From contig JBHGAY010000001.1 in NCBI GenBank assembly GCA_041946735.1, positions 32,001 through 96,000 of the forward strand: a stretch of DNA of 64,000 nt, in the 5' to 3' direction. Below, piece by piece: positions 39,601 to 55,736 of this stretch; the first letter of the stretch is position 1; the number at the start of each line of letters is the position of its first letter. The notes under the pieces are model-generated. The model did no database searches. It had not been told where the DNA came from and saw only the letters and a list, made by a program, of their open reading frames with translations. Source of the stretch: Candidatus Eiseniibacteriota bacterium (GTDB lineage: Bacteria > Eisenbacteria > RBG-16-71-46 > CAIMUX01 > VGJL01). The position numbers were made by a program, and so were the translations under genes.

Positions 39601-42296
39601 CCGAAGACCGGATCGCCGAAGTCGAGCCCCGGCCGCACCCGCGCCTCGAGGTCGATCTCGACCGACCGGCCGAGCGGGACGGGCCCGAGCCACGAGACCG
39701 CTCCAAGCGTGGCGTCCATCTCCGTCCCCTCCGGCCCCTCGGCGTCGAGAAGCTGCAGGTCGCCGGAGAGCAGGACGGTCGCGAGAGCTTCGGGAACGAC
39801 CGCGCGGCCCATGTTGCGGACCGTCGCCCGGAATCGAAGCGTGTCGCCCGACAGGACCGGCGGCTCGCCTCCCTCCACGATCGACAGGGAGCTGAGCGCG
39901 AGGTTGCCCTCCTCGAAGATCGCCACGGCCTCCGGGCCATCGAGGCTCGAGTGCGCCGAGACGATCGAGACGCCCGGAATGTAGGGCCGGGCGGAGTAGA
40001 CCGCGCCATGATCTCCGGGGGGAAGGTGGAAGGGGTTGCCGTCGCGGTCGGTGATGATCAGCCGGCCGTCGCGCGTGAAGGCGACGTCGGTGGGATCGAC
40101 GAGGACAGAGTCGGCCGCCGCAACCTGGATCGTCGCGTTCGCCCGGCGCACCTCGAAGATCGCCCCGGTGTTCGTCCCCAGCCCGAGCGGATCCGCCGTC
40201 AGGTCGGCGATGAAGATCCGTCCTCCCGGGCTCACGGTGATCCCGATCGGATCGACGAAGGAACCGCCCGGCAGCGGAACCGGCTCGACGGAGCCGCTCG
40301 CGCGATCGATCGTGAAGAGCGCTCCGTCGCGCGGGTTCGACCCGCTCGGATCCGCGTCGTAGTCGATGAGCAGCAGAGTTCCGTCGTCCTCGGAGACAAC
40401 GTCGGAAGGCTCCGAGAAACGGGAATCGGAGGCGACGAGGTCGAGAGCGCCGCTCTTCAGGTCGAGCGCGAAGACCGCGCCCGGTCTCCCCGCGAAGCCG
40501 CGCGGGTTGGCGTCCTTGTCGACGAGGAGGAGCTCGTCCGCCCTGCCGTTGGCGATGCCGAGGGGCACGCTCAACTCCGGATGATCGGCGAAGGCGAGCA
40601 GCGTCTCGATCTCTCCGGTCAGCGGATCGAGGCGGAAGATGCCGCCGAGCGGACTCCCCGGCCCGCCCGTCACCCCTCGCCGGTCGAGGATCGCGATCGT
40701 GCCGTCGGAAAGGAAGGCGACGTCGCTCGGCTGCTCGAGCGGCGGCCCCTCGAAGACCACCTGGGGGCGAGGCCCTTCGCCAGGAGGCTCGAGGATGCGG
40801 CCGACCGATGTGCCGCCCACGTTCTGATAGTCGGCCCATACGATCCGGCCGACCTCCGAGCGGCGCGCGACGTCGGCGTTGAGGTCGAACGTGCTCGCGG
40901 CCCGCTGCACGCGCAGGACGATCCGCTCGGAGATCCCGCTCCCCTCCGCGACGTCGTTGCGCAGCCGGAGGTCGTAGGCGATGTCGACCTCTCCCTGCAC
41001 CTCGACGTCCCCGCTCCAGACGATCGAGCGCGTCGCCGGAATGTAGCTGAACGCGCCGGCGGAGACGGAGTCGGAGCCGATGCGGAAGTCCCATGCCTCG
41101 CTCAGGCGATGCTCGAGCGTCACCGGGCGGCCGGCCGTCTGGCCCGTGTTGCGCACCCGCACGCGCACGCGCATCCGATCGCCCGGCTGCAGGGGCGCGC
41201 CGTTCTCGTCCTCCCACCGGACGAGGGAGGAGTCGAGCGCGGTTCCCTGGAACTGGGAGATCCCCGAGAGCGAGCGGAAGAATCCCGAGCCGATCGTCTG
41301 CGTGATCGTCCCGGTGGAAAGATCGCACTGGAAGAGCGCGCCGCTCGCGTTCGGGATCTGAAGCGGATTCGCCTGTTCGTCGAGCACCCAGATCCGTCCG
41401 CTCGGATCGCGGAGCATGTCGTACGGCTCGACGAAGTCGGGAGGGGCGAAGGCCGCCTGCACCGAGAGGTCCGATCTCCGCACCCGGTAGATCGCGCCGG
41501 GCGCTCCTTCGTGGCCGTTGGGGTTCGCGTCCCGGTCGAGGATCAGGTAGTCCCCGTTCGAGTCGAGACAGATCGCGTACGGCGTCACGAACGCCGGTTG
41601 CGAGAAGACGACCGTGACCTCGCCGGTCGTCGCGTCGACCCGGAAGAGCGCGCCGGGAACGAGACCGGTCCCGAGCGGATCGGCGCGGTAGTCCCAAACG
41701 AGAATCGAGCCGTCGAGGTCGTAGACCATCGAGCGAGGCTCGACCCACAGCGGACTCGTCGCAAACGGAGCGGCGATGCGGGTCGTCCCGTCGATCCGGT
41801 AGAGCGCGCCCGGCCGGGTGCCGAGCTGCGTCGGGTCCGCGTCGGAGTCGAGGAGCAGGACGTCCCCGGACGGTTCGAGCAGGATGTCGACCGGGTCGAC
41901 CCAGCTCCGGCTCCATGCGAAGAGCGTCGCCTTGCCGGGAAGCGGGTCGTTGGGATCGATGAGCCAGACCGCGCCGCGGTTCTGGCCGAGACCGTCGATG
42001 TCCGCGTTGGCGTCGACGACGAGAACACGGGCGTCTTCCATGGGGGCCGTGGCGACGGGATCGACGAAGCCGACGGGCGTGGCGAGGAGCCGCACGCGAA
42101 CGGGACCGCCCGGATCTCCGAGGAACAACGACCCCCGGAAGTCTCCCGTCGAGAAGGGGTTGGCGTTCCGGTCGGTGATGAGCAGATTCCCGCTACGGAT
42201 CTCCACCGCGGCGGCGGGGCGCAGGATGAGCAGGACGAGCGTCGCCAGAAGCACCAGCTCGTGGGCTCCCCATCCCCGGGGACGGGACATCCGCAT
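36675..42296 (-). CDS. Large secreted protein: four six-bladed beta-propellers, three DUF11-like Ig domains, C-terminal FlgD-Ig/T9SS-like domain
   Basis: GAGGAG RBS; signal peptide ending AAA; 24 repeats of D-x-x-A-(D/N)-P...GA(I/L/V)(F/Y)R(V/I)D; spacers such as PGDRMRVRVRVRNTG; C-terminal PHPF...LRFDIP...VFDATGRRVRTL...WDGRNDRG..VASGVY. Confidence 0.82.
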   Translation of the reverse strand: MRMSRPRGWGAHELVLLATLVLLILRPAAAVEIRSGNLLITDRNANPFSTGDFRGSLFLGDPGGPVRVRLLATPVGFVDPVATAPMEDARVLVVDANADIDGLGQNRGAVWLIDPNDPLPGKATLFAWSRSWVDPVDILLEPSGDVLLLDSDADPTQLGTRPGALYRIDGTTRIAAPFATSPLWVEPRSMVYDLDGSILVWDYRADPLGTGLVPGALFRVDATTGEVTVVFSQPAFVTPYAICLDSNGDYLILDRDANPNGHEGAPGAIYRVRRSDLSVQAAFAPPDFVEPYDMLRDPSGRIWVLDEQANPLQIPNASGALFQCDLSTGTITQTIGSGFFRSLSGISQFQGTALDSSLVRWEDENGAPLQPGDRMRVRVRVRNTGQTAGRPVTLEHRLSEAWDFRIGSDSVSAGAFSYIPATRSIVWSGDVEVQGEVDIAYDLRLRNDVAEGSGISERIVLRVQRAASTFDLNADVARRSEVGRIVWADYQNVGGTSVGRILEPPGEGPRPQVVFEGPPLEQPSDVAFLSDGTIAILDRRGVTGGPGSPLGGIFRLDPLTGEIETLLAFADHPELSVPLGIANGRADELLLVDKDANPRGFAGRPGAVFALDLKSGALDLVASDSRFSEPSDVVSEDDGTLLLIDYDADPSGSNPRDGALFTIDRASGSVEPVPLPGGSFVDPIGITVSPGGRIFIADLTADPLGLGTNTGAIFEVRRANATIQVAAADSVLVDPTDVAFTRDGRLIITDRDGNPFHLPPGDHGAVYSARPYIPGVSIVSAHSSLDGPEAVAIFEEGNLALSSLSIVEGGEPPVLSGDTLRFRATVRNMGRAVVPEALATVLLSGDLQLLDAEGPEGTEMDATLGAVSWLGPVPLGRSVEIDLEARVRPGLDFGDPVFGVLRISGPHSPNPDSAGARVVAPLGSGDLVVVDMNADEIGDGRNRGALFFVDAVQKQFESLLLADSSWVDPLAIEPIEPIEEGRFLLADPMGGAPAVIRTVDYLRATSETTIADPRLGYPTDLLRTRAGDLLITDPLATLHPGDSPGPVIFVQRGGSGPLEVFSQNPAFRHPAQIAEDESGRLWCADRLADPDGDPQTGRGALFQIDPQSGAVLDTLQFPEMQSPASVVPWTDNGLVLIDEASDAGGEGRGAVFLIDPDQRSLSLLLSDPRFRQLRNGAFSSSGELWIVDRLARDETKPGQPRTLFRWDPETDQLEAVAADPSLATPMEIYSFPGPNPRLRSYTFEDLDGPPLEGDDEVQVTAEIANIGPVETLAAVYSDTLPPSINLDPGSIQTPGGTVSLPTGLNGLVWTVDLEQGDQLQIHYGGRMRQTLQQGGVLNLRSHLRTSEGVHRMRKLTARLPVYYQEGFLYLADGDADPYELGNTPGALWKIHLSSGQTTAMGSDSQLVQPVATIALPSEPPTILMVDSEANPGGHPEAKGAIFRWIPETSGFELLVADSLFRSPRSAVAVDDHTILLLDAQADPNHLTAASGPGAIFRVDLATKRVETVVSDTAFASPRAIVRQDENHVFVIDADADPLAFRLRNGAVFRVDLATRQVQTYAASADFRGPIGGAIGPEGDLYVVDRDVVPIPDDGSRGAIFRLDSKGNVVSVLKSRKLRRPHSIAFDQVGRMVISDSDADANHTGGSPGAVFRKETFSDDLQLLAGLSRFRAPSGFFLYEPLTPIDLTAFEALAGDAGVLLTWQVGEAAFEGYVLERAEGLDPADGEYVALNPDRPVPREGPFEYLDETAEPEVLYSYRIEALLPDGGTMLYGPVTATARTLRFSLLPPAPHPFRGASTSLRFDIPKAGKVELAVFDATGRRVRTLRDETMQAGRHSEVWDGRNDRGHPVASGVYLLHLRWQDREATRRLIRLR

Positions 42297-42504
42297 GTCT
42301 CTCTCCTCGCAAGGCACCGGCGCTCTCGCGCCGCCGGGGCCACGGAAAACGATCGGCGGGATCGGCTCGGATGCTGAGCACGAAGGTTCTTCCGGCCGAT
42401 CCATCTTGGCCCCGCTACGCAGCTTTCGTCAAGGATCGGGGCCCTTGCGGACGACACGTTCCGTGATAGTTTCGGACCACGGGAGACAACCGAGGGAGGC
42501 GCCG

Positions 42505-43338
42505 ATGAGCCGCTCCGAAGGATTCCGGGAACCGGTGGTCGCCGGCTACTTCTACCCGGCGGACCGGGAGGTCCTGGCGAGGAGGATCGAGACCTTCACG
42601 CGGGGCGAGCCGGTCCTCCCGGAGCCCGGCCCACGAGGGCTCATCTGTCCGCACGCCGGGTACGACTATTCCGGTCCAACGGCGGGAGTCGCCTACCGCG
42701 AGATCCGGGGCCGCCGCTTCGACGCCATCCTCGTCCTCGCTCCAAGCCACTACGACCGCTTCCATGGCGCGACCATCTGGCCCGGGGCCGGGTACCGCAC
42801 CCCGCTGGGAGAGGTCAGCGCGCCCGCCGACATCGTCGAGGCCCTGAGCCAGCTCGCGGTAGGGATCCAGCCGGATCTCCGGGGACATCGCGAGGAGCAC
42901 GCGGCCGAGGTGCAGATCCCGTTCCTGCAGGTGGTCGCTCCCGGCGCGCCGGTCCTTCCGATCGTCCTCGCCGATGACCGGCGGGAGACTTGCGAGCGGA
43001 TCGGCGAGGCGATCGCCGCCGCCACGGCGGACCGGACAGTCCTGCTGGTCGCTTCCTCGGATCTCTATCACGGTCATTCGGGCAAGGATTGCCGGGAGAC
43101 CGACGCCCGCACCTTGGGAGCGATCGAGCGCAACGATCCCGACGACCTGGCCGAGGGGTTCGCTTCGGACCGTTACCAGGCGTGCGGGCGCGGGCCGATC
43201 CAGGTCCTTCTGCACGCGTGCCGCCGGGCAGGGGCCGAGAAGGTGCGCATCCTCAGCCGGACGAACTCCGACGAGGTCGTGGGACGGCCGGGCTCCTACG
43301 TCGTCGGGTACGCCGCCGTCACGGTCGCCGCCTCCTGA
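42505..43338 (+). CDS. amrB: MEMO1-family protein (AmmeMemoRadiSam protein B)
   Basis: REPVVAGYFYP, ICPHAGYDYSG, APSH, TPLG, EHAAEVQIPFLQ, ASSDLYH, ACG, VVGYAA; GGGAGG RBS. Confidence 0.9.
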   Translation: MSRSEGFREPVVAGYFYPADREVLARRIETFTRGEPVLPEPGPRGLICPHAGYDYSGPTAGVAYREIRGRRFDAILVLAPSHYDRFHGATIWPGAGYRTPLGEVSAPADIVEALSQLAVGIQPDLRGHREEHAAEVQIPFLQVVAPGAPVLPIVLADDRRETCERIGEAIAAATADRTVLLVASSDLYHGHSGKDCRETDARTLGAIERNDPDDLAEGFASDRYQACGRGPIQVLLHACRRAGAEKVRILSRTNSDEVVGRPGSYVVGYAAVTVAAS

Positions 43339-45656
43339 TCCCTCGCCCCGCGTGGCGACGGAACGCGGACGCAGAGCAGCGTCATATCGTCCTGCATCTC
43401 TTGCGAGCCGGTGAACCGGATCACCTCGTCGCGCACGCTCTCGACCACCTCGCGCGCGCTCGTGCAGATCCGCCCCCGGCCCTCGAGGAGCGAAATCAAG
43501 CGCTCCTCGCCGAACTCCTCGCCGGCGCGCGAGCGCGCTTCGGTCGCGCCGTCCGTGTAGAGGAGCAGGCAATCGCCGGGATGGAGCCGGAGGCGCTGCT
43601 CCGAATAGACCGCCTCCTCCATCACGCCCAGCAGGAGGTCGGAGGGTTCGAGCAGCGCGCACGTCGCGTGGTCGAAGCGCACCGGGTAGTTGTGTCCCGC
43701 GTTGCAGAAGGTGAGCACCATCTCCCTGGGATCGATGTGAGCGAGGAAGAGGGTCACGAACTGTTCCGGTCCGGTCGACTCGTAGAGCAGCTGATTCACT
43801 CGCGCGCAGGCGCGCGCGGTATCGGGGTCCTCCCGCAACAGAGTCCGTAGCGAGGCCTGGAGCATGCTCGCCAGCAGAGCCGCTCCGACTCCCTTGCCGG
43901 CGACGTCGGCGATCGCGATCCCGTAGCCACCGCCCTTGACCGGAAAGAAATCGAAGGAATCGCCCCCCACCTGCTTGCTCGGCAAGCTCAGGCCGTGCAC
44001 CTCGAACGGGAGCCCCTCCGGGAAACGAGAGGGGAGGAATGTCTGCTGGATCTTCCGCGCGACCGCCAGCTCCTCCTCGAGGACCGCCTTCTCGAGATTG
44101 TCTCGGTGGAGCAGGGAGTTGCGGAGCGCGATCCCCGCCTGGCCGGCCAGGGAGGCGAGGACTTGGATCTCCTCCCCGCGATAACGCATTCCGGAAAGCT
44201 TCGTGCCGAGGACGAGAAGCCCGAGACGCTCGCCTCCATGGCGCAACTCGTAGGACAGCGGGGGCAGCGGCGAGAGGACCGGACGGGCGGCGACCGGCGC
44301 GTCCGCTTCGGCCGCCGCTCGCAACCCGGCGGCCGCGAGGACGCCCGAATGCGGGTCCTGCGCGGCGCGCATCGCCTCCCTCCACTCGCGCGCCGTGAAG
44401 GGACGGCCGGCGCCGAGCGGCTCCGGGAGATAGGGCGCGAGCGAGGCGAGCCGCTCGACCATCTCGCCATCGAAGCCGGTGGCGCGAAGCGGGCGGTAGC
44501 GGCCGCCCGGCGGAGGCCCGTGCCGCTCCCCGGGAAGGAGGAGAATCGCCGCGCCGCTCGCCCCGAGCGTCTCCGGCAGCTGGCGGACCAGGTCCTCGGC
44601 CAGCGGCTCGAACTCGAGGGACTGCGAGATCCGGTCGCCGACCCGAAGCGAGAGCGCTCGAAGCTCGCTCCCGCTCTTCAGGATCCATCCCTCAAGCGAT
44701 TCCTCGATCCGGCTCATCAGAGGCTGGAAGAGGAAGACCGGCACGAGCAGCACCGCCCAGTCGATCACTCCGGGATCGATAGGCAGCGCGCCGGTCAGCA
44801 CCCGCGCTACCCGCCTCGCGATCTGCAGGTAGATGGCGATCAACAGGGCTCCGGCGGTCGCGTAGAGGATCGTCCGCCTGACGATCCAGCGGACGTCGAG
44901 GAAGCGGTGGCGGACGATCGCGTAGGCGATCGTCCCTGCGCAGGCGGCCAGCGATCCGACGAGGAGCGTCGAAGCGGCCGCCCCCCCGAGGCGCAGCCCG
45001 AGCAGGACGTTCAGGGGTCCCCCGAGGCTGTACAGGACGAGGCCGATTCCCATGCCGACCAGGATCGTCCGCATCTGGTTGCGCAAGCTCGACACGCGCA
45101 CGCGCGCGTGGTTGCGGAAGATCAGGAAGATCGAGATGCCGATGTAGGTGAGGTTCACGAGCGAGAAGAGGTAGCGGTGCCAGCGGAAGAAGAGCGAGAG
45201 GAGCACGCGCACCGGATCGAGGACGGCGGCCAGAAGCGGCAAGCGCGCGGACAGCCGGTCCAGCCCGAAGCTCGGTCCCCAGACCATCGCGAAGAACATG
45301 AGGAAGAAGTGAATCAGGTGCGGGACGAAGATCGCCAGCTCTCCCGATCCCCCCTTGTGAAGCCAGCCCGCTTCATGCGGGAACGACGCGGCGAACAGCA
45401 ACAGCGCCGGGAAGAAGAACTCCCAGAGCCAGGCGTACTGCGTGACGAGCGAGGCGGGAAAGCCGGCGCGCGAGGAGGCGGGGACAAAGAGCGAGCCGGC
45501 GCCGAGAAGCGATCCGACCCCGGCGAAGAAGAGCATCAGCGCCGTGACGCGGTTGATTCGGGCGCTGGTGTCTTCGCGAAAGATGACGAGCCCGAGAAGG
45601 GTCGTCAGGACCCCGACCAGAAGGTAGGCGGTCGCCAGAAGGCTCGCGTAATCCAT
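43296..45656 (-). CDS. Membrane PP2C/SpoIIE phosphatase (7TM-type sensor, GAF-like, PP2C; RsbU-like)
   Basis: About 9 TM helices, GAF-like region, then ARKIQQTFLP, VGGDSFD, IADVAGKG, NAGH, YTDGATEA, DDMT; ATG 45656. Confidence 0.88.
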   Translation of the reverse strand: MDYASLLATAYLLVGVLTTLLGLVIFREDTSARINRVTALMLFFAGVGSLLGAGSLFVPASSRAGFPASLVTQYAWLWEFFFPALLLFAASFPHEAGWLHKGGSGELAIFVPHLIHFFLMFFAMVWGPSFGLDRLSARLPLLAAVLDPVRVLLSLFFRWHRYLFSLVNLTYIGISIFLIFRNHARVRVSSLRNQMRTILVGMGIGLVLYSLGGPLNVLLGLRLGGAAASTLLVGSLAACAGTIAYAIVRHRFLDVRWIVRRTILYATAGALLIAIYLQIARRVARVLTGALPIDPGVIDWAVLLVPVFLFQPLMSRIEESLEGWILKSGSELRALSLRVGDRISQSLEFEPLAEDLVRQLPETLGASGAAILLLPGERHGPPPGGRYRPLRATGFDGEMVERLASLAPYLPEPLGAGRPFTAREWREAMRAAQDPHSGVLAAAGLRAAAEADAPVAARPVLSPLPPLSYELRHGGERLGLLVLGTKLSGMRYRGEEIQVLASLAGQAGIALRNSLLHRDNLEKAVLEEELAVARKIQQTFLPSRFPEGLPFEVHGLSLPSKQVGGDSFDFFPVKGGGYGIAIADVAGKGVGAALLASMLQASLRTLLREDPDTARACARVNQLLYESTGPEQFVTLFLAHIDPREMVLTFCNAGHNYPVRFDHATCALLEPSDLLLGVMEEAVYSEQRLRLHPGDCLLLYTDGATEARSRAGEEFGEERLISLLEGRGRICTSAREVVESVRDEVIRFTGSQEMQDDMTLLCVRVPSPRGARDQEAATVTAAYPTT

Positions 45657-45736
45657 CGTCGGGGGCCCCCTCGTCCATCGCCCGCACCAGGCGGCGGCGG
45701 CGGCTGCGGCGCCGGCCCCCCTCGATCGACGCGAAG

Positions 45737-46249
45737 CTAGGAGGAGCTCACGTCCTCGTTCGGCTCCGGCGGCGAGACGTTGGGAAGAGCGAGGAGCTCG
45801 ACGGCCCTCGCGACCAGTCGTTCCGCAGCGGCGAGGATGACACGGGTATCCTTCTTCCCGCAACGCGCCCCTTCGTGGACCAGGTCCTTCTGATCCTTGG
45901 CGATTCGCAACAGGTCGACGAGTTTCGGATCGAGAGCGCCCGGCTCCACGTAGAGCCTCTGGACGCCGGCCGTGAGGCTGTAGAGGTTCGAGTCGCGGTA
46001 TCCGCCGGCAAGCAGGAGGCTCTTGGCAGCGCGATACATCGCGAAATAGGCCTGAACGACGGTTTCCTCGAACCGGCCGTTGTGGAAGCAGTTTCGGGCC
46101 TTCACCAGCTCGTCGATCCCCGTCTGGATCTCACGGGCAAGTGTCGCGTCGTCGACTTCCGCTGGCTTCAGTCTTCCGTTGCGGATGCAGGACTCGAAAG
46201 GATTCACGAACCCGGGCTCCCTCGTACTTGGCTCGCTGCGAACAGCCAT
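45737..46249 (-). CDS. HEPN-domain protein, standalone, apparently degenerate active site
   Basis: AYFAMYRAAKSLL helix typical of HEPN/UPF0332 proteins; GGGGAG RBS; TTGTGG-N17-TACATT upstream. Confidence 0.7.
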   Translation of the reverse strand: MAVRSEPSTREPGFVNPFESCIRNGRLKPAEVDDATLAREIQTGIDELVKARNCFHNGRFEETVVQAYFAMYRAAKSLLLAGGYRDSNLYSLTAGVQRLYVEPGALDPKLVDLLRIAKDQKDLVHEGARCGKKDTRVILAAAERLVARAVELLALPNVSPPEPNEDVSSS

Positions 46250-46364
46250 CTCACTCCCCAAGAATGTATACAGAACAACCAACTGCCACAAGGCCCGATC
46301 AGCGATCGCAGGAAAAACCGGCCCATAGCGGAGCCGTTTCGCGGCCAGCGGGCGGCGCGGGCGA

Positions 46365-47498
46365 TCAAGAGAACGCCTGCTCCAGGTCGGCCCGCAAGTC
46401 CTCCACGTCCTCGATGCCGACCGACAGGCGCAGCAAGCCGTCCTCGAAACCGCGGGCGGCGCGCTCTCCCGCCGGCATCGAGGCGTGCGTCATCGTTGCC
46501 GGGTGGCAGAGGAGGCTCTCGACGCCCCCCAGGCTCTCGGCAAGGGCGAAGAGATGGGTGCGTCCGGCGAAACGGGCGGCCGCCTCGAGGTTCTCCAGGA
46601 CGAACGAGACCATCCCCCCGAAGCCGCTCGCCTGGCGCGCGCAGAGGGCATGGCCCGGATGCTCGGGGAGGCCGGGATAGAGCACGCGCTGGACCTCCCG
46701 CCTCTCCTTCAGCCACCGCGCGATCTCGCCGGCGTTCTGCTCGTGCCTCGCCATGCGGAGAGGCAGGGTCTTGATCCCCCGCAGCGCGAGCCAGCAATCC
46801 ATCGGGCCCGGAACTGCGCCGACCGCGTTCTGCAGGAACGCGAGCCGCTCGGCGAGGTCGGCGCGCCGCACGACCACGATTCCGCCGACCATGTCCGCGT
46901 GCCCGTTGAGGTACTTCGTCGTCGAATGCAGGACGATGTCGGCGCCGCGCTCGAGCGGTCGCTGGAAGAACGGCGTGAGGAAGGTGTTGTCCACCGCGAG
47001 GAGCAGCCCTCCCGCGCGGCACACGGCGGAGACCGCTTCGAGGTCGACGATCTTCATCAGCGGGTTCGTCGGCGTCTCGACGAAAACCATCCGGGTCTGC
47101 GGCCGGCGCGCTCTCGCAATCGCCTCGGGATCGGTCTCGTCGACGTAGGTGAAGGCCAGGCCGAGGCCCCGAAAGACCTTCTCGAAGAGGCGGTAGGTGC
47201 CGCCGTACATGTCGTCCGAGGCAATGACGTGGTCTCCCGCCTGGAGGAGCTGCAGGACGGTGGAGATCGCGGCGAGACCCGACGAGAAGGCAAACCCTCG
47301 TTCTCCCGCCTCCAGCCTCGCTACGCACTTCTCCCACGCTTCGCGCGTCGGATTCTGCGTGCGCGCGTACTCGTAGCCCTTGTGCTTCCCCAGTCCCTCC
47401 TGGACGTAGGTCGACGTCTGGTAGATCGGAACCGTGATCGCCCCGGTGGAGGGATCGGGGTGTTGGCCGGCGTGCACCGCGTCGGTCGCGAATCCCAT
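46365..47498 (-). CDS. Cystathionine gamma-lyase/synthase (Cys/Met PLP family)
   Basis: PIYQTSTY, YARTQNPTR, FSSGLAA, DDMYGGT, ETPTNP, VDNTF, HSTTKYLNGH (PLP Lys), LAESLGGVESL, RLSVGIED. Confidence 0.93.
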   Translation of the reverse strand: MGFATDAVHAGQHPDPSTGAITVPIYQTSTYVQEGLGKHKGYEYARTQNPTREAWEKCVARLEAGERGFAFSSGLAAISTVLQLLQAGDHVIASDDMYGGTYRLFEKVFRGLGLAFTYVDETDPEAIARARRPQTRMVFVETPTNPLMKIVDLEAVSAVCRAGGLLLAVDNTFLTPFFQRPLERGADIVLHSTTKYLNGHADMVGGIVVVRRADLAERLAFLQNAVGAVPGPMDCWLALRGIKTLPLRMARHEQNAGEIARWLKERREVQRVLYPGLPEHPGHALCARQASGFGGMVSFVLENLEAAARFAGRTHLFALAESLGGVESLLCHPATMTHASMPAGERAARGFEDGLLRLSVGIEDVEDLRADLEQAFS

Positions 47499-47631
47499 CG
47501 AAAACCCGCCTTTCCTCTGTTCCGTGCCCGTCCGTTCTTCCGCCGTTCCTCACAGGTCCGCCGGACCGCGGGGCGACCGGGCGTGACCGCACGGTCGCGC
47601 TCGCGCCGTGCCGGGCGGGAGCGCCGGCGTT

Positions 47632-49044
47632 CTAGCGAGCGATGTACTCGATCAGGTCGAACCGGGTGAGGATGCCCACGATCTCGCCTCGCTCCTCCAC
47701 GAGGAGCGCGGGGAGCCGGTCGGCCAGCATGCGCGCCGCGTCCCTCACGGGAGCGTCCGAAGGAATCCGTGGCAAAGGAGCCTCAGCGAGCCGGGTCACG
47801 GGATCCTCGAGATGCGCCTCTCCTTCGAGGAGCTTCTTCAGGAGCGTTCCCTCGACCAGCGTCCCCTCGACGCGCCCCTGATCGTCGACGATCGGAAGCT
47901 GGGAGACGTTGTGAGCCTGGATCAGCGCGAGCGCGTCGCGCATCGTGCCGCCTTTTCGCACGGAGACGACCGGCGGAAGGCCGACCTTCTTCGCGCGGAC
48001 CACGTCGGCGACGCGCAGCAGCTCGGGATCGAGCATGCCGTTGTCGCGAAGCCACTCCTCGTTGTGGAGCTTGCTGAGGTAACGCTCGCCGGTATCGGGG
48101 ATCAGCGCGACGATCGTCTGATCCTCGCGCATCTCGCGCGCGAGCTGCAGGGCCGCCGCCACGGCCGTTCCCGCCGACCCGCCGCACAGCATCCCCTCCT
48201 CCCGCGCGAGCCGCCGGGAGACCGCGAACGAGTCGCGGTCGGAGATCGTCAGGATGCGGTCGAGAACCGAGAAGTCGAGGGTGCCCGGGATCATGTCCTC
48301 TCCGATCCCCTCGACCAGATAGGTGTGGGCGCCCGAGTGGCGCCCCGTCTCGAACTGCTCGCGCAGGATCGATCCTTCCGGGTCGGCGCCGACGACGAGG
48401 ACCGATGGGTTCTTCTCCTTCAGGAAGCGTCCGGTCCCGCTGATCGTCCCGCCGGTCCCCATTCCTGCCACGAAAGCGTCGACCTTGCCGCCGCACTGCT
48501 GCCAGATCTCCGGCCCGGTGGTGCGGTAATGGATCTCCGGATTGTCGGGATTGAAGTACTGGTTCGCGTGGAAGGCGCCCGGCGTCTCGCGAACAATTCG
48601 CTTCGCGACCTCGTAGAAGCTCTCCGGGGAGTCGGGAGGGACCGACGTGGGGGTGACGACGACCTTCGCGCCGTAGGCTTTCAAGAGGTTGATCTTCTCG
48701 CGGCTCATCTTGTCGGGCATCGTGAAGATGGCCCGATAGCCCTTGACCGCCGCGACCATCGCGAGGCCGACGCCGGTGTTGCCCGAGGTCGACTCGACGA
48801 TCGTCCCGCCGGGCTTCAATAGCCCCGCCCGCTCGGCCTGCTCGATGATGTGGACGCCGATCCTGTCCTTGACACTGCCGCCGGGATTGAAGAACTCGAC
48901 CTTCGCGAAGAGGGCCGGGCGCACGTCGCGCCCGACGCGTTGGAGTCGGACCAGGGGGGTGCCGCCGATCGTCTGGAGGATGTCGTCGTACCGGGCGTTC
49001 TTCTGGTCCAAGCGAGAACCCTCCTCCGCGAGCGGCTGCGGCAT
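47632..49044 (-). CDS. cbs: Cystathionine beta-synthase with C-terminal CBS-domain pair
   Basis: IGGTPLVRL, NPGGSVKDRIG (PLP Lys), TSGNTG, NQYFN, GMGTGGT, VEGIG, PDTGERYLSK, then two CBS domains. Confidence 0.92.
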   Translation of the reverse strand: MPQPLAEEGSRLDQKNARYDDILQTIGGTPLVRLQRVGRDVRPALFAKVEFFNPGGSVKDRIGVHIIEQAERAGLLKPGGTIVESTSGNTGVGLAMVAAVKGYRAIFTMPDKMSREKINLLKAYGAKVVVTPTSVPPDSPESFYEVAKRIVRETPGAFHANQYFNPDNPEIHYRTTGPEIWQQCGGKVDAFVAGMGTGGTISGTGRFLKEKNPSVLVVGADPEGSILREQFETGRHSGAHTYLVEGIGEDMIPGTLDFSVLDRILTISDRDSFAVSRRLAREEGMLCGGSAGTAVAAALQLAREMREDQTIVALIPDTGERYLSKLHNEEWLRDNGMLDPELLRVADVVRAKKVGLPPVVSVRKGGTMRDALALIQAHNVSQLPIVDDQGRVEGTLVEGTLLKKLLEGEAHLEDPVTRLAEAPLPRIPSDAPVRDAARMLADRLPALLVEERGEIVGILTRFDLIEYIAR

Positions 49045-49078
49045 GGGCTGAGGCCTCGGCCTCGCGCTTCGCGCCGCG

Positions 49079-50476
49079 CTAGTGGGTCACGCGAGCTAGA
49101 TACGTCTCGTAGTCGTACCCCTTCGCCTTGCCCCATTCCCCGGTATGGCAGGTCTCGCAGATCGCCGAGGCGGCGTGCTTGCGGAAGCCGTTGTTGGCCG
49201 ACGCGGCGACCATCTGGAGGGGGGTGGAGCCTCTCGAGTGCATCGTCCCCAGCCCATGGCAGGCTTCGCACTGGACGTTCTTCATGTCCGGCTCGGAGAC
49301 GTTCTCCGCGAAACCGCCCACAGTCTCCCAGCCGGTCACGTGGCAGCTGACGCAAGCCGGGTCCTTCTCCTTGCCCGCCTTGACCAGCGTCTCGTAGGCG
49401 TGGGCGTGCGGCGTGCTGGCCCACTGCGCCGTCTGCGTCGCGTGGCACCGCTGGCACTTCTCTCCCCCGATCATCTTGTCGGAGGCGAGCTGTCCCTCGA
49501 CGTCCGAGAGCTTCTTCTGCTGCTCGGCGCGCAGCATCTGCTTCGCCTGGTCCTCGATCTGCTTGATCTCCGCGGAGACGGCGGTGTTCTCAGGGAACTG
49601 CTCGTCGAGAGGGGCGTTGCGCGTGCCCCAATCGGTGATCCGGCCTTCGGGATCGACGATCAGGACGAGCTGGCCGATGTATTGCCCGCGCATTCCGGTC
49701 TGCTGGACGATCGTCGAACCGAGCTTCTCGCCATGGTCCTTCCAGCCCGGATCCCGCCCGTAGAGAGCCACGTCGATCCCGGGGACCTTCGTGATCAGGT
49801 CCTCCGACTCCTGCTGCGACATCTGCGACATCAGGACCACGAGCTCCGCCTTCTTGTGAAGCTCCGGCACCAGCGCCTGGGCCGTCTTCAGCGGATCCTC
49901 GGTCCGGAACTCGAGGCCGCCCTTCGGCTGCGAGCGAGCGACCTCGCTCGGACTGATCAGCGAGAAGAACGCGACCTTGACCCCGCCGACTTCGGTGACC
50001 ATGTACGGGTCTCCGCCCGGCTGCTCGGCGCCGTTGCGCAGCACCTTCAGGTTGCTCGCGACCGAATGGATGGGGCTGTTCGCGAAGAGCTGGCGATAGA
50101 GGTCCCAGTCGTTCATTTCGCGGTAGCCGGGCGTCGAGGCCAGGTACCCCATCTTCTCCATCTGCTGCCAGATGAAGCGGCTCTTCAGTTCGCCGACGGT
50201 CTGCTCGTTGTTGAGGAAGTTCCCCAGATCGACCAGCGCCAGGCTCTTTCCCGAAGCTCGAAGCGAATCCACCACGCCGGCCCGCCGGGCCAGCCCGCCC
50301 TTCTGGCTAGCGTGTCACCCACATGGAGCCAGCTCGCCATTCGTGGATCCGAGCGAGAGGAGCATCACCTCGCTGTTCGACTCCCGGTGCCCGCTCCCCT
50401 TCATGCCGGCGCATCCCGGCAACAGGGCGATCGCGAGAGCCAGGCTCAGGATCGCCAGGCTGATCTTCTGGAACAT
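49079..50476 (-). CDS. Predicted selenoprotein: lipoprotein, UshA/5'-nucleotidase-like domain with C-G-U motif fused to a tetraheme cytochrome c
   Basis: GGAGG RBS, ATG 50476, lipobox LPGC (Cys22), GELAPCG-TGA-HASQKGGLARRA continuing in frame into ORF 49079..50275; TGA at 50315-50317 is codon 54; heme motifs CQRCH, CVSCH, CEACH, CETCH. Confidence 0.85.
50273..50314 (-). promoter_or_regulatory. Candidate bacterial SECIS stem-loop
   Basis: Directly 3' of the UGA: CACGCUAGCC pairs with GGCCGGCGUG (one mismatch), enclosing CGGG-CUGG-CCCG whose loop begins about 21 nt after the UGA. Confidence 0.55.
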
Positions 50477-50805
50477 TCCCCAAGTCCTCCAAGAGAAGGG
50501 ATCCCATCCCGTTGCACGGCCACACCATGCCCGTTGAGGTTACCACCCGGGCAAACGTCGCAGCAACAAACCCTTCGGTTCCGTTTCTGCTCCGTTGCTT
50601 TCCCCCTTATCGGCCGGCCGGTCCGTCCGCTCGCGCTCCGCGTCAGCCTACCCCGAGCGCCCCTCACCGGACGAATTTCGGCTCCTTGGGCCTCCGGCGA
50701 CCGGTCCTGTCGGACGGCGCGCACCTCGCCGCGGGCACCGGCCGGGAGGAGTTCGCTCTTGATCATCTCCGCGATCCTCCGCCCCCGAGCCTCTCCTCGG
50801 CCGTC

Positions 50806-53800
50806 TCAGCGCTGCTCGCGCTCGTACTTCACGTCGGGGAGCGACTTGATCGAGATACGGAAGTAGTAGGACGTGTCGGATCCCCGGACCTGGCGGTCGA
50901 ACGACGCCTCCCAGCAGTGCAGGTCGCGGTAGAGCGAGAGCCCCTCCGAGCGGATCTCCCGATCCTGGAGATCGAAATAGATGCTGTAGGTGACCCGCCA
51001 GCTGGTGGTCGGCACGATGCTCGCCGTCACGTTCATCGCATTGGCGATCGAGCGGCGGGGCGCGCTGCGCGAGAAGCTGTGCCCGATGCTCACCGACCAG
51101 TTGCCGATCGCCGACGCCCTGCGCTCCCCCGGCCGGTTCCTTCCCGAGACCGCCTGCCCGAAGCCGCTGTAGGCGCCGGTCAGGCTGTCGCCGGGCGCCG
51201 CGGCCGAGCCACCGCCTCCGCCACCGCCGCCTTGGAAGCGGAGGCTCGTCTGCACGGAGAGGTTGCGGAGGCGCCGCGAGTAGGGATCGTGGCTGACCGT
51301 CCAGGAGTTGTCGATCCAACGGGACGGGCTCAAGCGAAGGTTGTTCGTGATCGGACCCCAGGCGCGGTTCTCGTCGCGGCGCTCGAAGTCGTAGCTGGTC
51401 GTCGTCGTCCAGAGGATCAGGTTGTCGATCTTGATCGGGGTCTTCGGATCGGCGCCGCGGAACTTCGCGTGCACGCGCTGCGTGAGGCTCAGCGAGACCG
51501 CGCTCGCGCGCGCGCCCGAGAGCGAGATCCCGCCGACCGACGGGAAGCGAGAGCGCTCGACGCCCGCCGAGTCGGCGTAGGTCAGGCTGGGGAAGTCCGG
51601 GGAGTAGCGCCAGGATGCGGAAGGCTCGATCACGTGGCGCAATCCCGTCAACGGTCCGACCGGAACGGCGAACGTCCCGTAGAGAGCGGTCCGCGCCGAG
51701 ATCCCCGCGTTCCAGACCGCCCCGACCGCATGCTGCTTGCCGAGGGCGTCGCGCCGGAACCAGGCCGCAGTGCCGTTGACCGACGGCTGGACCTTCAGGT
51801 ACGGCCCGAGCGTCCGGTTGTCGGAGAGTCCGCTGGAAACCTGCGCGGCCTGGTCGTCGCGCGTCGGCTCCCCCCACTCCTTCGTGAACGTGCTGCGGAA
51901 GCGGGAGGAGAAGGTGGCGTAGACGGTCGAGAGGGCGGGAAGCCTCCCGCCGCGGCCCCGGTCGTCCGGCTTGACGCCGACCGGGAAGCTGTTCATGGAG
52001 AAGTCGAGGCTCGGCAGGTTCTGCTGCACCTGGATGTCCGAGGCGTTCCGGTCGAGGTATTCGGTGCGGTCCGCGGTCAGCGAGAGGCTGGCGCTCGACC
52101 AGGCCTTCCGGACGTCGACGTTCGACTTGAGGATGCGGTTCAACACTTCGTCGACCGACCCGCCGAAGGCGCGGTCATCGCGGAAGTTCTGGTCGCTCAC
52201 GAAGTCCGCGCGCGCGCGCAGGCTGGCGCGCTCGCCGAGCTGCTGCTCGTGGCCGCCGCGCAGGTCCCAGCGCGTCCTTCTCGACCCGAACTGCGTCTCG
52301 CGCGCGAACGATCCGAAGAGATCGCCGCGAAGCGAGTAGCGGACGTTGTAACGCAGCTGGCTGCTGATGACGGTCCGGGGAACCCCTTCGTAGTAGTCGG
52401 CCCAGACCATCGCGTCGGCATAGTCGTTGGGCGCCCAGTAGTAGCCGAGGTTGCGCAGGAACCGCCCGCGCGTCCGGTCGAAGCCGAACTCGACATCGGG
52501 CATCAGCACGCCGGAGTGCCGTCCCCGCTTGATCGGGAACACCCAGTACGGAAGCGCCAGCAGCGGAATGTCGTGCAGGTAGAGGACGATCGGGCGCGCG
52601 ATCACGCGATCCCCGAGCCGGATCTTCATGCGAGACGAATGGAAGTGGTAGTGGTGCGTGTCGGCGAGGCAGGTGGTGTAGTCCCCGCCGCGGACGAGGA
52701 GGATCTTGTCGTCGACCCGCTTGATCTCCTCCCCTTGGTAGACTCCTCCCTCGAACTGCGTCTCCCCCGAGTAGACGAACCCCTGCCGCTCGTCGAGGCG
52801 GTAGATCATTCGCTCACCGACGAGCGCGCTCTGCTGATCCTGCAGCTTCGGCTCCCCCGTCGCGACGACCCGGTCGCGCGACGCCTCGTAGTCGACGTCC
52901 TTCGCCTGCAGCTCGAGGTTCTGGTAGTGAACGGTCGCGCTCCCTTCGATCCGGATCTTCTTCTCCCCGACGAAGAAGACGACCTTGTCGCCCGAGTAGG
53001 CGACCCGCTCCGCAGGATCGAACGGCCCGGCGCGCTCGAGCGAATCCGGAAGCGGCTGATCCGGTGCCGCGAGGAACTGCGCGACCGCGCGCGCGACGTA
53101 GAGGGAATCGGCCATCCTCGCGACCGTCGTGTCCGGCTTCTCGCGCGGCAGGACGTAGGCGCCGCTCGCCGCCCCTTCGAGATCGACCTGCTTCGCCTCC
53201 CCGCCCTCGAGAGAGATGCGGATGCGGCGGCCATGGGCGAGGTTCGACCCGACGTCCCCTTCGCGCCGGTCCTCGGGCGAGGGGAGGTAGAGGCTGCGCG
53301 CCTCGCCGCGCACCTCGATCTCGCGCACGCCGGTCGAGTCGAGCCGCGCGATCAGGGTGTCCCCCAGGATGACGTTCACCTCGCCCGGTTTCTGCTCGGG
53401 TCTGTAATCGACATGCGCGTGGCCAAGCACCTCGAGCCGCTCGGCTCGTCCCTCGTGCAGGACGATCGCCATCGAGTCGCCCCGCACCTCGCCGTCCTCC
53501 TCGATCGTCATCGGATGGTCGCGCAAGAGAAGGACGTCCCGATCGAAGTCGAGATCGGCCGACCCGGCGCGCGCCTCCACCTCCTCGCGATCGATCCGGA
53601 CGTCGCCGTAGGCGCGCCCGCGCCGCCCGCCGGAGAGCAGGACGAGCGTGTCGGCGTGCACGACGACCGGCGCCTCGTTCCCCTTTCCCGGGGAACGCAG
53701 CACCGGTGAGCCGGTAATCACCGCGCGATCGGCCACGCGGTCCATTTCCGCCCGTTGGCCGGTGATGCGCACGCTGTCGCGCAGATCGAGGATTCGCACG

Positions 53801-54387
53801 TCCCCGGTCGCGATCGCTTCGCGCGGCCCGCTGCGGTAGACGACCTCGTTGGCGTCGACGATCGACCGGTCGTCCTGCAACCGCACGTCGCGGCGAAGAT
53901 CGACGATCCCCCTGCCGCGCTGGTAGGTCAGCTCGCTCGCGGCGAGCCGCCCCTCCGGACCGTTCCCCGTCACTCCGCCGGTCAGGATCGCGCGCCCGCT
54001 CGCCCTCTCGTAGGTCGCCTGGGCGGACTGCAGCGTGCGCGTCGAATCGCGCAGGACGACGTTGCCGGTCAAGAGCAGCCGGTCCTCCGCCCGCCACCAG
54101 ATTCCCTGGTCCGCCGTGACGACCGTCGATCCCTGCACGGCACGCGGCTGGACGATCCGCGTCTCTCCGGCCGGCGTTCCCTCGAGCGACTCGCCCGTGA
54201 TCGTCCACGGCTCTCCCCCATCGGACGGAGAAGGCGCGGGCGCTGCATCTGCGGATGGCGGGGCGGGCACGGCCGGCTGCTGGCCGCCCGCAAGTCCCGC
54301 CAGCACGGAAAGCGATAGGAGGAGCAGGAGCGCGAAAGAGAGCGCGAGGGCAAGCGGGCGGTCGCGACGGCGGCGGCCGGAACGCAT
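50806..54387 (-). CDS. lptD: LptD-like outer-membrane protein with extended OstA/LptA-like N-terminal region
   Basis: Signal peptide; long run of beta-jellyroll-like repeats (LTGNVVLRD, LTGGVTG, ATGDVRI, AYGDVRI, ATGEPKL); YTTC, ARPIVLY...PLLALPY..FP....RHSG.LMP, LGYYW, LYRDLHCWE. Confidence 0.85.
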   Translation of the reverse strand: MRSGRRRRDRPLALALSFALLLLLSLSVLAGLAGGQQPAVPAPPSADAAPAPSPSDGGEPWTITGESLEGTPAGETRIVQPRAVQGSTVVTADQGIWWRAEDRLLLTGNVVLRDSTRTLQSAQATYERASGRAILTGGVTGNGPEGRLAASELTYQRGRGIVDLRRDVRLQDDRSIVDANEVVYRSGPREAIATGDVRILDLRDSVRITGQRAEMDRVADRAVITGSPVLRSPGKGNEAPVVVHADTLVLLSGGRRGRAYGDVRIDREEVEARAGSADLDFDRDVLLLRDHPMTIEEDGEVRGDSMAIVLHEGRAERLEVLGHAHVDYRPEQKPGEVNVILGDTLIARLDSTGVREIEVRGEARSLYLPSPEDRREGDVGSNLAHGRRIRISLEGGEAKQVDLEGAASGAYVLPREKPDTTVARMADSLYVARAVAQFLAAPDQPLPDSLERAGPFDPAERVAYSGDKVVFFVGEKKIRIEGSATVHYQNLELQAKDVDYEASRDRVVATGEPKLQDQQSALVGERMIYRLDERQGFVYSGETQFEGGVYQGEEIKRVDDKILLVRGGDYTTCLADTHHYHFHSSRMKIRLGDRVIARPIVLYLHDIPLLALPYWVFPIKRGRHSGVLMPDVEFGFDRTRGRFLRNLGYYWAPNDYADAMVWADYYEGVPRTVISSQLRYNVRYSLRGDLFGSFARETQFGSRRTRWDLRGGHEQQLGERASLRARADFVSDQNFRDDRAFGGSVDEVLNRILKSNVDVRKAWSSASLSLTADRTEYLDRNASDIQVQQNLPSLDFSMNSFPVGVKPDDRGRGGRLPALSTVYATFSSRFRSTFTKEWGEPTRDDQAAQVSSGLSDNRTLGPYLKVQPSVNGTAAWFRRDALGKQHAVGAVWNAGISARTALYGTFAVPVGPLTGLRHVIEPSASWRYSPDFPSLTYADSAGVERSRFPSVGGISLSGARASAVSLSLTQRVHAKFRGADPKTPIKIDNLILWTTTTSYDFERRDENRAWGPITNNLRLSPSRWIDNSWTVSHDPYSRRLRNLSVQTSLRFQGGGGGGGGSAAAPGDSLTGAYSGFGQAVSGRNRPGERRASAIGNWSVSIGHSFSRSAPRRSIANAMNVTASIVPTTSWRVTYSIYFDLQDREIRSEGLSLYRDLHCWEASFDRQVRGSDTSYYFRISIKSLPDVKYEREQR

Positions 54388-54389
54388 TC

Positions 54390-55736
54390 TCACCCCTCCG
54401 CCGGGTCGTTCCCGGCGGCCGCGCCGTTCCAGAGCGGATCGCGAGGCCCGATGCCGAGTCGCTCGAAGACCGGCCCGACCGTGTAGAAGGAGCCGGTCAC
54501 GAGGATGCCCTCCCGATCGGTCCGAGCTTGCTCCGCCGCGTCGAACGCCTCGGCCGGCGAGGCGTGGGCGGAGGCGGGCAGCCCTACCGTCCCGCAGATT
54601 TCGGCGAGCGCCTCTGCGGAGACGGCGCGGTCGGTCGGCGGCGTGCAGGCGTGGACGAACGTCAGGCGCGGCGCGAGCGCGCGCAAGAACGCGGTATGGT
54701 CCTTCCCTTCGACCATTCCGACGACCGCGCGCATCGCCGTCGCTCGCCGCACGAGGAGCTGCGCGAGGAGCCGGGAGAGGCTCTCGGCCCCCTCGGGATT
54801 GTGACCGACGTCGCAGATCACGAGCGGGTCCTGCCGCACGACCTCGGCGCGTCCCGGCCATCGGGCCCGCGCGGCGCCGGCGCGGATCGCGCGCGCGTCG
54901 ATCCCCATCTCGGCGGGCAGCAGCGAGAGGGCGAGAATCGCGGTCGCGGCGTTCGAGACCTGATGCGCGCCGGCGAGGGCGAGATCGATCTCGAGCGGTT
55001 CGCGCGGCCCGGGCTGGCCGGGGCGGGCCTGGACGAGGAACCGCGATCCGCGTGGCGTGAGAGCGATGTCGGAGACCCGCAGGCAACGGCGCCGTTCGTA
55101 GATCGGGATGCCGATCAGGCGAGCGCGAGCATCGAGGACGGCGAGCGCGTCGGAGTGGCGGACGGAGACGACGGCCGGAGCGCCCGCGCGAAAGATCCCG
55201 GCCTTCTCGCCGGCGATCGCCCCGCGGGTTTCTCCGAGGATCTTCACGTGATCGAGGTCGATCGTCGTCACCACCGTCACCAGGGCGCGAACCGGCCGGC
55301 TCGCATCGAGCCGGCCGCCGAGCCCGACCTCCACCGCCGCCGCGTCCACTCCGCGTTCGCGGAACCACAGGAACGCGAGCAGCGTCGTCGCCTCGAAGAA
55401 GGATAGCTCCCATCGGTCGACCGTGGGGCGGATCGCGCCCGCCAGGGCGACGACGTCCCCCTCGGGAATCATCCGGCCGTCGATCCGGATCCTCTCGCGG
55501 AAGTCGATCAGGTGGGGCGAGGTGAAGAGGCCGGTGCGGCGGCCGGCCGCCTGCAGGCAGGAGGCGACGATCGCGCTGGTCGATCCCTTGCCGTTGGTGC
55601 CCCCGATCAGGACCGACGGGAAGGTGAGCTGCGGATCGCCGTGCTCGCGCAGCGCCCCCACGATCCGGTCCAGGCCGAGGCGCACGCCGCGCCGCTCGAG
55701 GGAGAAGAGCCAGGCGCAGGCGTCGGCGTAGGTCAC
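54390..55736 (-). CDS. folC: Folylpolyglutamate/dihydrofolate synthase
   Basis: LGLDRI, GTNGKGST, FTSPHL..FRERI, EVGLGGRLDA, IDLDH, EKAGIF, WPGR, DVGHNP, VTGSFY. Confidence 0.95.
   Translation of the reverse strand: MTYADACAWLFSLERRGVRLGLDRIVGALREHGDPQLTFPSVLIGGTNGKGSTSAIVASCLQAAGRRTGLFTSPHLIDFRERIRIDGRMIPEGDVVALAGAIRPTVDRWELSFFEATTLLAFLWFRERGVDAAAVEVGLGGRLDASRPVRALVTVVTTIDLDHVKILGETRGAIAGEKAGIFRAGAPAVVSVRHSDALAVLDARARLIGIPIYERRRCLRVSDIALTPRGSRFLVQARPGQPGPREPLEIDLALAGAHQVSNAATAILALSLLPAEMGIDARAIRAGAARARWPGRAEVVRQDPLVICDVGHNPEGAESLSRLLAQLLVRRATAMRAVVGMVEGKDHTAFLRALAPRLTFVHACTPPTDRAVSAEALAEICGTVGLPASAHASPAEAFDAAEQARTDREGILVTGSFYTVGPVFERLGIGPRDPLWNGAAAGNDPAEG

Follow-up and report, generated by a model that had tools for sequence, protein, structure and literature searches.

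Cystathionine β-synthase (CBS) and cystathionine γ-lyase (CGL) together carry out reverse transsulfuration, the conversion of homocysteine to cysteine, in which H2S can also be released, and cbs-cgl pairs form operons in other bacteria. In the periplasm, flavocytochrome c sulfide dehydrogenase (FccAB) uses a redox-active chalcogen pair to pass electrons from sulfide to c-type haems. Here we analyze a gene trio from Candidatus Eiseniibacteriota bacterium (assembly GCA_041946735.1, contig JBHGAY010000001.1, positions 32,001 to 96,000), in which a gene for a predicted exported, selenocysteine (Sec)-containing tetrahaem protein of the UshA-like type is followed by cbs and by a cystathionine γ-lyase-type gene (cgl). 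The whole 64,000-nucleotide stretch is referred to as the window, and positions are counted from its first letter. The trio recurs as a conserved, lineage-specific cluster that is typical of Candidatus Eisenbacteria without being obligatory there.

The whole trio is encoded on the minus strand. Its first member, the UshA-like gene, extends from 50476 (ATG) to 49079 (TAG) and contains one in-frame TGA, giving 465 residues if read through; cbs follows after a 34-nt gap, from 49044 (ATG) to 47632 (TAG), and cgl after another 133 nt, from 47498 (ATG) to 46365 (TGA). Coordinates and both gaps agree exactly with an earlier reading made from the sequence alone (the original prediction), which had drawn attention to this co-oriented trio.

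The individual parts have described counterparts. As in bacterial cbs-cgl pairs (Mycobacterium tuberculosis Rv1077 CBS; 7xnz and others), a CBS carrying a CBS-domain pair adjoins a γ-lyase-type enzyme, whereas here an exported Sec/tetrahaem gene leads the probable unit. The likeness to FccAB is a functional analogy only; the UshA-like protein showed neither a flavin domain nor any relation to FccAB in sequence or fold. A profile built from 40 relatives of this protein matched, among solved chains, 5'-nucleotidases (1.6e-37), the thiosulfohydrolase SoxB (2.7e-22) and cytochrome c554 (chain 1bvb, 6.9e-22). SoxB shares the 5'-nucleotidase superfamily with the N-terminal domain (TIGR04486 E 9.5e-11), but the match reaches 40.7 bits against a cut-off of 550, ordinary 5'-nucleotidases fit better and the first metal-binding motif is replaced. 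With cytochrome c554 (PDB 1bvb/1ft5) the protein shares a c554-type domain that carries four CxxCH motifs, but here this domain is fused to a Sec-bearing pseudo-phosphoesterase domain.

The closest counterpart is the family entered as "COG0737, UshA-like, CxU" in the 2008 Global Ocean Sampling selenoproteome (PMC2398784) and also present in review tables (PMC9312934, PMC13188914); the accessible parts of these three papers give no function for it. Its NCBIfam model, NF041198 (UshA_like_PCGU), was the best such model for the window protein. Members share its export, an N-terminal domain of 5'-nucleotidase type that bears P-C-G-U, the occurrence of Cys forms among relatives, and a multihaem C-terminus. 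The match (209.5 bits, E 7.8e-62) falls in two stretches and below the curated cut-off of 275; searched against the genome, the gene appears as two matches of 107.6 and 90.7 bits. The C-terminal multihaem part is itself covered by the model (positions 355–511 of 519). With 5'-nucleotidase homology and a C-x-U motif (APCGU) that has Cys variants, the window protein is, by sequence, a divergent relative of this catalogued family. In the accessible parts of the full texts searched and of the UshA-like family literature, a cbs-cgl context of the selenoprotein was not found. The original prediction had proposed a new module with an undescribed combination of genes; this stands for the cluster, while the selenoprotein family has been listed since 2008. 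What is new is therefore the conserved cluster itself, apparently undescribed and assembled from known parts.

The in-frame TGA as a selenocysteine codon

The TGA occupies 50315–50317 on the minus strand and corresponds to residue 54 in the motif A-P-C-G-U. At the aligned position in 114 distinct homologues from 110 loci, 91 carry TGA and 19 a Cys codon; four are uncovered. The same genome encodes Sec machinery, namely selB (349.1 bits, cut-off 242.25), selA (478.9 bits, cut-off 267.9) and tRNA-Sec (72.1 bits, gathering threshold 47), all on contigs other than that of the trio. Around the codon, 40 diverse sequences share G53, U54 and G60-G61 without exception, and K59 together with GGLARRA (residues 60–66) is invariant in 12 closer ones. 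Because GGLARRA is also present in Cys forms, and a related GGVARRAT occurs in true 5'-nucleotidases, its conservation reflects a protein motif and not an RNA constraint alone.

A SECIS-type hairpin, whose 7-bp stem closes a G-rich loop of 3 nt (50277–50293, minus strand), begins 21 nt past the TGA, within the codons for L-A-R-R-A-G. Across 84 aligned sequences (columns 25–31/35–41), 95.4% of cells are paired, compared with 28–50% when the partner columns are slid; 28 cells are changed on both sides, a number reached by none of 500 shuffles. At least six of the seven pairs are kept in 77 of 83 Sec forms, as against 2 of 17 Cys forms, the latter being 25 script-labelled rows minus eight whose peptide was not the motif behind Cys-Gly-Cys (in six the pattern lay elsewhere in a Sec-form protein, and two, L073 and L094, were true Cys forms out of register). 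A longer single-sequence fold past the TGA was tried and rejected (z −0.48; 58.1% paired in the alignment, no better than shuffles). With TGA in 91 homologues, Cys in 19, a covarying hairpin and Sec machinery in the genome, the Sec reading put forward in the original prediction holds, and we regard the TGA as a real selenocysteine codon on this comparative evidence.

A Cys stands two residues ahead of Sec in 85 of the 91 Sec forms. The other six (L045, L046, L047, L052, L054 and L055) all belong to family f3 and have T, V or S instead, in the motifs PTGU, VVGU, AVGU, TVGU and ASGU; a Cys-Sec bond is therefore not the whole mechanism everywhere.

Domain make-up of the UshA-like protein

The translation begins with a signal peptide that ends in a lipobox-like LLPGC (Cys22; 50411–50476, minus strand), so the protein is probably an exported, lipid-anchored lipoprotein. 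A Cys with G or S ahead of it is kept in close relatives, not family-wide (L068 is an exception). The only Pfam domain detected is the cytochrome c554 domain (Cytochrome_C554, 2e-16), located in the C-terminal region (49082–49480, minus strand). Its four CxxCH motifs, at residues 341–345, 375–379, 403–407 and 440–444 within the last 130 residues, agree with the four-haem part of the original prediction. All four motifs, together with H357 and H413, are invariant in a 40-sequence alignment, and H465 is nearly invariant in the 12 closer sequences. Since four CxxCH motifs face two further invariant and one nearly invariant His, one haem may lack histidine as its sixth ligand.

The solved chain 6r2q_A, named "Cystathionine beta-synthase" in the Protein Data Bank (PDB), also matched the profile. 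We take it to be a decahaem cytochrome with a misleading name; the match is confined to the haem domain, and the chain was rejected as a link between CBS and cytochromes.

An AlphaFold2 model computed from the alignment of 40 relatives (mean pLDDT 89, pTM 0.71) gave 5'-nucleotidases as top Foldseek matches (E 6.5e-21, about 310 aligned columns, their N-terminal domain), and no thioredoxin fold was found in the Foldseek search. A long helix at residues 298–332 precedes the haem domain, which in the model would occupy the place of the 5'-nucleotidase C-terminal domain. In the profile alignment, the first motif has the family consensus "ilstgdvkG" where 5'-nucleotidases have HTNDVH; in the window protein the H, D and H are replaced, by position, with S, S and N, and its other motifs read DLGNF and PGYRE. 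HTNDVH and the second and third phosphoesterase motifs (DxH, GD, GNHE) are, as we take it, the metal ligands of the superfamily. The metal-binding motifs of an active metallophosphoesterase (DxH, GD, GNHE) are absent from the UshA-like protein. Because the metal-binding residues are replaced, and a Cys-Gly-Sec loop and a four-haem domain are present, the protein reads as a redox protein rather than a phosphoesterase; its N-terminal domain is best described as a pseudo-phosphoesterase scaffold, provided that the metal ligands are presumed correctly.

The CBS and CGL-type enzymes

The second gene (47632–49044, minus strand) encodes a cystathionine β-synthase with a C-terminal CBS-domain pair. 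It exceeds the TIGR01137 cut-off (556.1 against 510.25 bits), matches the Pfam models PALP (2.2e-84) and CBS (1.6e-18), and has M. tuberculosis Rv1077 as its closest solved chain (E 1.9e-125). The third (46365–47498, minus strand) encodes a pyridoxal phosphate enzyme of the cystathionine γ-lyase type (PF01053, 2.1e-151). It stays below the cut-offs of the more specific models, the best being the γ-lyase equivalog NF005810 (519.2 against 594), with the γ-synthase model NF005871 at 512.3 against 513. We read it as a γ-lyase because it is paired with cbs and because the names of the nearest solved chains (E about 8e-150) are cystathionine gamma-lyase and cystathionine gamma-lyase-like protein. 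From their sequences, the two products appear to be ordinary cytoplasmic enzymes of reverse transsulfuration.

Recurrence of the gene cluster

For 61 genomes of the class, among them the one that contains the window, the positions of selenoprotein, CBS and CGL matches were compared manually; all counts from this survey hold among the matches listed. The UshA-like selenoprotein is present in 60 of the 61 genomes, and cbs and/or cgl lies directly behind it in 24, spread over 8 of 16 family labels. CBS comes directly behind in 20 genomes, followed by CGL where the contig allows, and CGL comes directly behind in four (G006, G009, G017 and G040). By family, the adjacency occurs in 5/6 genomes of f1, 8/13 of f2, 1/1 of f7, 2/2 of f9, 2/3 of f10, 3/3 of f12, 2/2 of f15 and 1/1 of f16.

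A second set, drawn from public genomes and overlapping in part with the class genomes, comprised 80 loci out of 555 relatives found, each taken with flanks of 6 kb. In 20 of the 80, CBS and/or CGL is present in the flank and has the same orientation. Two of these 20 are titled Krumholzibacteriota and one carries no phylum title; in these three, intervening genes span about 2 kb. In a FastTree tree of 111 homologues, in which the deep forks are weak, linkage is seen in one Eisenbacteria clade, for 33 of its 59 rows, and in one small Krumholzibacteriota/unnamed clade (3 rows). The original prediction had left room for a chance adjacency in a single genome. Surveying gene neighbourhoods instead uncovered linkage across the class and in public loci, and because it recurs in so many genomes, the adjacency is more than chance.

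The trio is also kept where its surroundings differ. In L068, L089 and L101 all flanks are different and lptD is not adjacent; the flanks are, respectively, a copper ATPase with rhodanese and MauE, a peptidase S9 with bactofilin, and glycosyl hydrolases with DUF520. Within the cluster the order varies. Besides UshA-like-CBS-CGL, a Cys-form UshA-like paralogue stands ahead of cbs in L067 and behind cgl in L089, L094 and L108, and the four genomes named above have the UshA-like gene followed by CGL. Adjacency is still seen when selenoprotein identity has dropped to about 30–35%.

A conserved upstream block and a probable transcription unit

The original prediction had placed a sigma70-like promoter, TTGCTG-N18-TAACCT, ahead of the first gene. 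The string is present (extended form TGGTAACCT; 50537–50566, minus strand, about 60–90 nt ahead of the start codon), but it matches the consensus at 6 of 12 positions, which is weak, and a consensus promoter scan of 45500–51000 listed no site. Only comparison among relatives brought the element to light, as it does fall on a conserved block, TTGAAC-N17-TGGTAnnCT, about 60–70 nt ahead of the start codon and found in all six aligned genera of the family. Of 110 distinct homologue genes, 15 have TGGTAnnCT in the 300 nt ahead of them, compared with 0.0065 expected per 320 nt, and the motif has two copies in the window and 62 in the 4.9-Mb genome. The block thus appears to be a specific element rather than the organism's general promoter form, and it may act as a promoter. 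No regulon emerged from a genome-wide search with the promoter-like motif. One other TTG-N-TGGTAnnCT site, on contig C7, ends about 7 nt ahead of an open reading frame (ORF) of the glyoxalase family and is probably due to chance.

At the other end, a terminator-like hairpin followed by GTTTTTCC, a T-run (46319–46336, minus strand), lies 29 nt past the cgl stop. It is of interest for its position only, as the region contains three terminator-like sites against 2.7 expected, which is not above chance. An Rfam search of 45000–52000 gave no riboswitch in the 133-nt gap, and the fold of this gap is no better than shuffles (z 0.62). The same family collection gave a sub-threshold match to "gyrA RNA" inside the selenoprotein coding region (49844–49951, minus strand; 26.7 bits against 45), most likely a chance hit. 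The conserved block, the 329-nt gap that separates the UshA-like gene from lptD upstream, the 34-nt gap and the hairpin past cgl together fit one unit, and from this layout the three genes are probably co-transcribed.

Other neighbourhoods of UshA-like genes

A paralogous clade of UshA-like Sec genes (L074, L083, L086, L087, L091, L112 and L115) has a fixed order of its own: DUF1573, rhodanese, MauE/DoxX and the UshA-like gene, followed in six of the seven loci by a NapH-like 4Fe-4S protein (Fer4_5). The one rhodanese examined, that of L112, has a hydrophobic stretch ahead of its domain and would be membrane-anchored. Related genes also occur near the trio, as a divergent rhodanese/MauE pair beside it in L068 and as a MauE/DoxX-type ORF about 1.4 kb upstream in L069. 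The neighbourhood looks like a membrane-linked sulfur or redox module. Judged from these paralogues, the rhodanese/MauE/NapH-like context suggests that the family takes part in the transfer of sulfur and in electron flow linked to the membrane, which agrees with the original prediction.

A different arrangement is seen in L093, L113, L127–L130 and L134 (titled Blastocatellia, Chloracidobacterium or Acidobacteria). Here the genes behind the UshA-like one encode DciA, an ABC-transporter ATPase and LolA, which is a context of outer-membrane lipoprotein trafficking.

Proposed role and alternative explanations

We tentatively favor a reading in which the trio is a conserved, probably co-transcribed unit whose exported Sec/tetrahaem redox protein is co-expressed with transsulfuration for the handling of small sulfur compounds. 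Its logic would most likely be co-expression during the conversion of sulfur amino acids. Sulfide, persulfide or cysteine would cross the inner membrane, reduced sulfur would be oxidised on the Sec/Cys centre at the periplasmic face, and the electrons would pass to the haems; the reverse is conceivable, with oxidised sulfur being reduced to sulfide that CBS then fixes. The cluster supports, at the level of gene content, a link of this orphan selenoprotein to small sulfur compounds. In the original prediction, the exported protein might oxidise, reduce or sense sulfide, persulfide or selenide set free by CBS and CGL; the recurrence and layout of the cluster give this proposal partial support, its chemistry being hypothetical. 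In a more specific form, which we consider unlikely, the protein would be a periplasmic oxidoreductase that needs no flavin to move electrons from sulfide, persulfide or cysteine to cytochrome c. Its selenol would attack or carry sulfur beside the haem that has no invariant His as sixth ligand, and the protein would be wired to the H2S-releasing transsulfuration enzymes through the operon. If so, the breakdown of sulfur amino acids in Eisenbacteria would feed the respiratory chain.

Several observations weigh against a cooperating unit. The selenoprotein carries an export signal, whereas a signal peptide is absent from the translations of both CBS and CGL, so that coupling between the compartments needs a diffusible compound, for which there are candidates only. 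In the H-TPKGGLARRA clade, about 290–350 nt lie between the aligned segments of the UshA-like gene and cbs, which leaves room for a separate promoter. Among the matches listed in the class survey, 33 of the 61 genomes have no adjacency or could not be judged, and in four more (G036, G041, G054 and G060) the cbs-cgl pair lies 14–16 kb off on the same strand and contig; adjacency is found in 0/15 genomes of f3 and in none of f4, f5, f6, f8, f11, f13 and f14. In the 80-locus set, linkage to cbs or cgl is absent from loci titled Acidobacteria, Acidobacteriota, Blastocatellia, Chloracidobacterium, Fibrobacteraceae or Nitrospirota, and from those titled Sumerlaeota, Rokuibacteriota, Thermodesulfobacteriota, Armatimonadetes or Cytophagia. 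In G002 and L076, the selenoprotein gene is joined to the conserved gene that comes next, with cbs-cgl cleanly missing from between the two, and the pair acts as a present-or-absent cassette at this locus. Related genomes are, moreover, non-independent samples.

Much of this would also be expected if the order lptD, ushA-like, cbs, cgl were inherited synteny from an Eisenbacteria ancestor in slow decay, perhaps with a shared transcript but with products that do not cooperate. We regard this as a serious alternative, plausible even if short of probable. It draws on the preserved order of the unrelated genes accD, folC and lptD in several loci, and on the position of lptD, which precedes the selenoprotein gene in 23 of 30 loci of one set and, on the same strand, in 32 of 80 of the other, compared with cbs behind it in 15 of 30 and 20 of 80. 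The lptD linkage is also the wider one, extending to Fibrobacteraceae (for example L099, L103, L132 and L135) and Krumholzibacteriota (L080 and L081); inherited gene order is therefore strong here. The confinement of linked rows to one Eisenbacteria clade and one small Krumholzibacteriota/unnamed clade fits a single origin followed by losses. The clean losses of cbs-cgl and the contrast between 60 genomes with the selenoprotein and only 24 with the adjacency speak for inherited synteny as well. Inheritance alone accounts less well for a trio that stays intact where lptD and all other flanks differ, for an internal order that shifts while membership stays, with UshA-like paralogues on both sides of cbs-cgl, and for adjacency that persists down to a selenoprotein identity of about 30–35%. 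There is support for a functional unit and for inherited inertia alike.

Another possibility, which we think rather improbable, is that the selenoprotein serves the cell envelope, not sulfur catabolism, as a haem-linked thiol-disulfide oxidoreductase acting on exported or outer-membrane proteins, with cysteine from cbs-cgl acting as a periplasmic redox buffer. The gene adjoins lptD in Eisenbacteria, Krumholzibacteriota and Fibrobacteraceae loci and the DciA, ABC ATPase and LolA genes in the Blastocatellia, Chloracidobacterium or Acidobacteria loci described above, its product probably has a lipoprotein anchor, and the Cys-x-Sec motif resembles that of thiol oxidoreductases. Yet the gene is set off from lptD by 329 nt and carries a conserved promoter-like block of its own, the six Sec forms lacking the upstream Cys are a misfit with simple dithiol/selenenylsulfide exchange, and the protein has no thioredoxin fold.

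A link specific to selenium is very unlikely. CBS and CGL would in that case turn selenomethionine or selenocystathionine into selenocysteine and selenide for the neighboring selenoprotein, and the accessible part of a 2026 review (PMC13188914) reports that the yeast enzymes can process selenium analogues, prokaryotes being described as an open question. Against this, selA, selB and tRNA-Sec are not at the locus, linkage to cbs-cgl extends to Cys-form paralogues (L067, L089, L094 and L108), and a dedicated pathway is unnecessary for one selenoprotein. Finally, a true stop at the TGA, which would leave a peptide of 53 residues and a separate haem protein of 398 residues from GTG 50275, is extremely improbable, for although translation table 11 yields both ORFs and the single-sequence fold past the TGA is unremarkable, reading frame and conservation continue through the codon in 91 homologues with Cys in 19 others, the invariant residues span it, and the covarying hairpin and the Sec machinery are in place.

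Flanking genes

Upstream of the UshA-like gene, accD, folC and lptD lie on the minus strand (50806–56617), packed with overlaps or gaps of a few nucleotides. The accD stop is overlapped by a candidate folC start at GTG 55736. For lptD, the likely start is ATG 54387, 2 nt past the folC stop; in the listed 1535-residue lptD ORF (to 55413), about 342 residues at the N-terminus, which overlap folC, would then be spurious. In some related loci a gene for an HU-like DNA-binding protein stands between lptD and the UshA-like gene.

Downstream of the cluster is a HEPN-domain gene (45737–46291, minus strand), which lies directly behind the selenoprotein gene in relatives lacking cbs-cgl at the locus (G002, G011, G019, G023 and G027). 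Further on, a 1909-residue ORF with NHL repeats and a C-terminal FlgD-Ig-like domain (36675–42404, minus strand) lies downstream of a SpoIIE/GAF phosphatase gene (43296–45863).

Implications for UshA-like selenoproteins

UshA-like CxU selenoproteins are widespread, as judged from the 555 relatives in the public-genome scan and their near-universal presence among the class genomes. The cbs-cgl cluster offers the first concrete, testable direction for this family, namely redox chemistry of low-molecular-weight sulfur compounds at the periplasmic face, and the rhodanese/MauE/NapH-like context of the paralogous clade points the same way. Should the proposed role not hold, the analysis still corrects the annotation of a gene that callers cut at TGA; if it does hold, sulfur amino-acid metabolism in this uncultured phylum would gain a further connection to electron transport, one based on selenium and haem.

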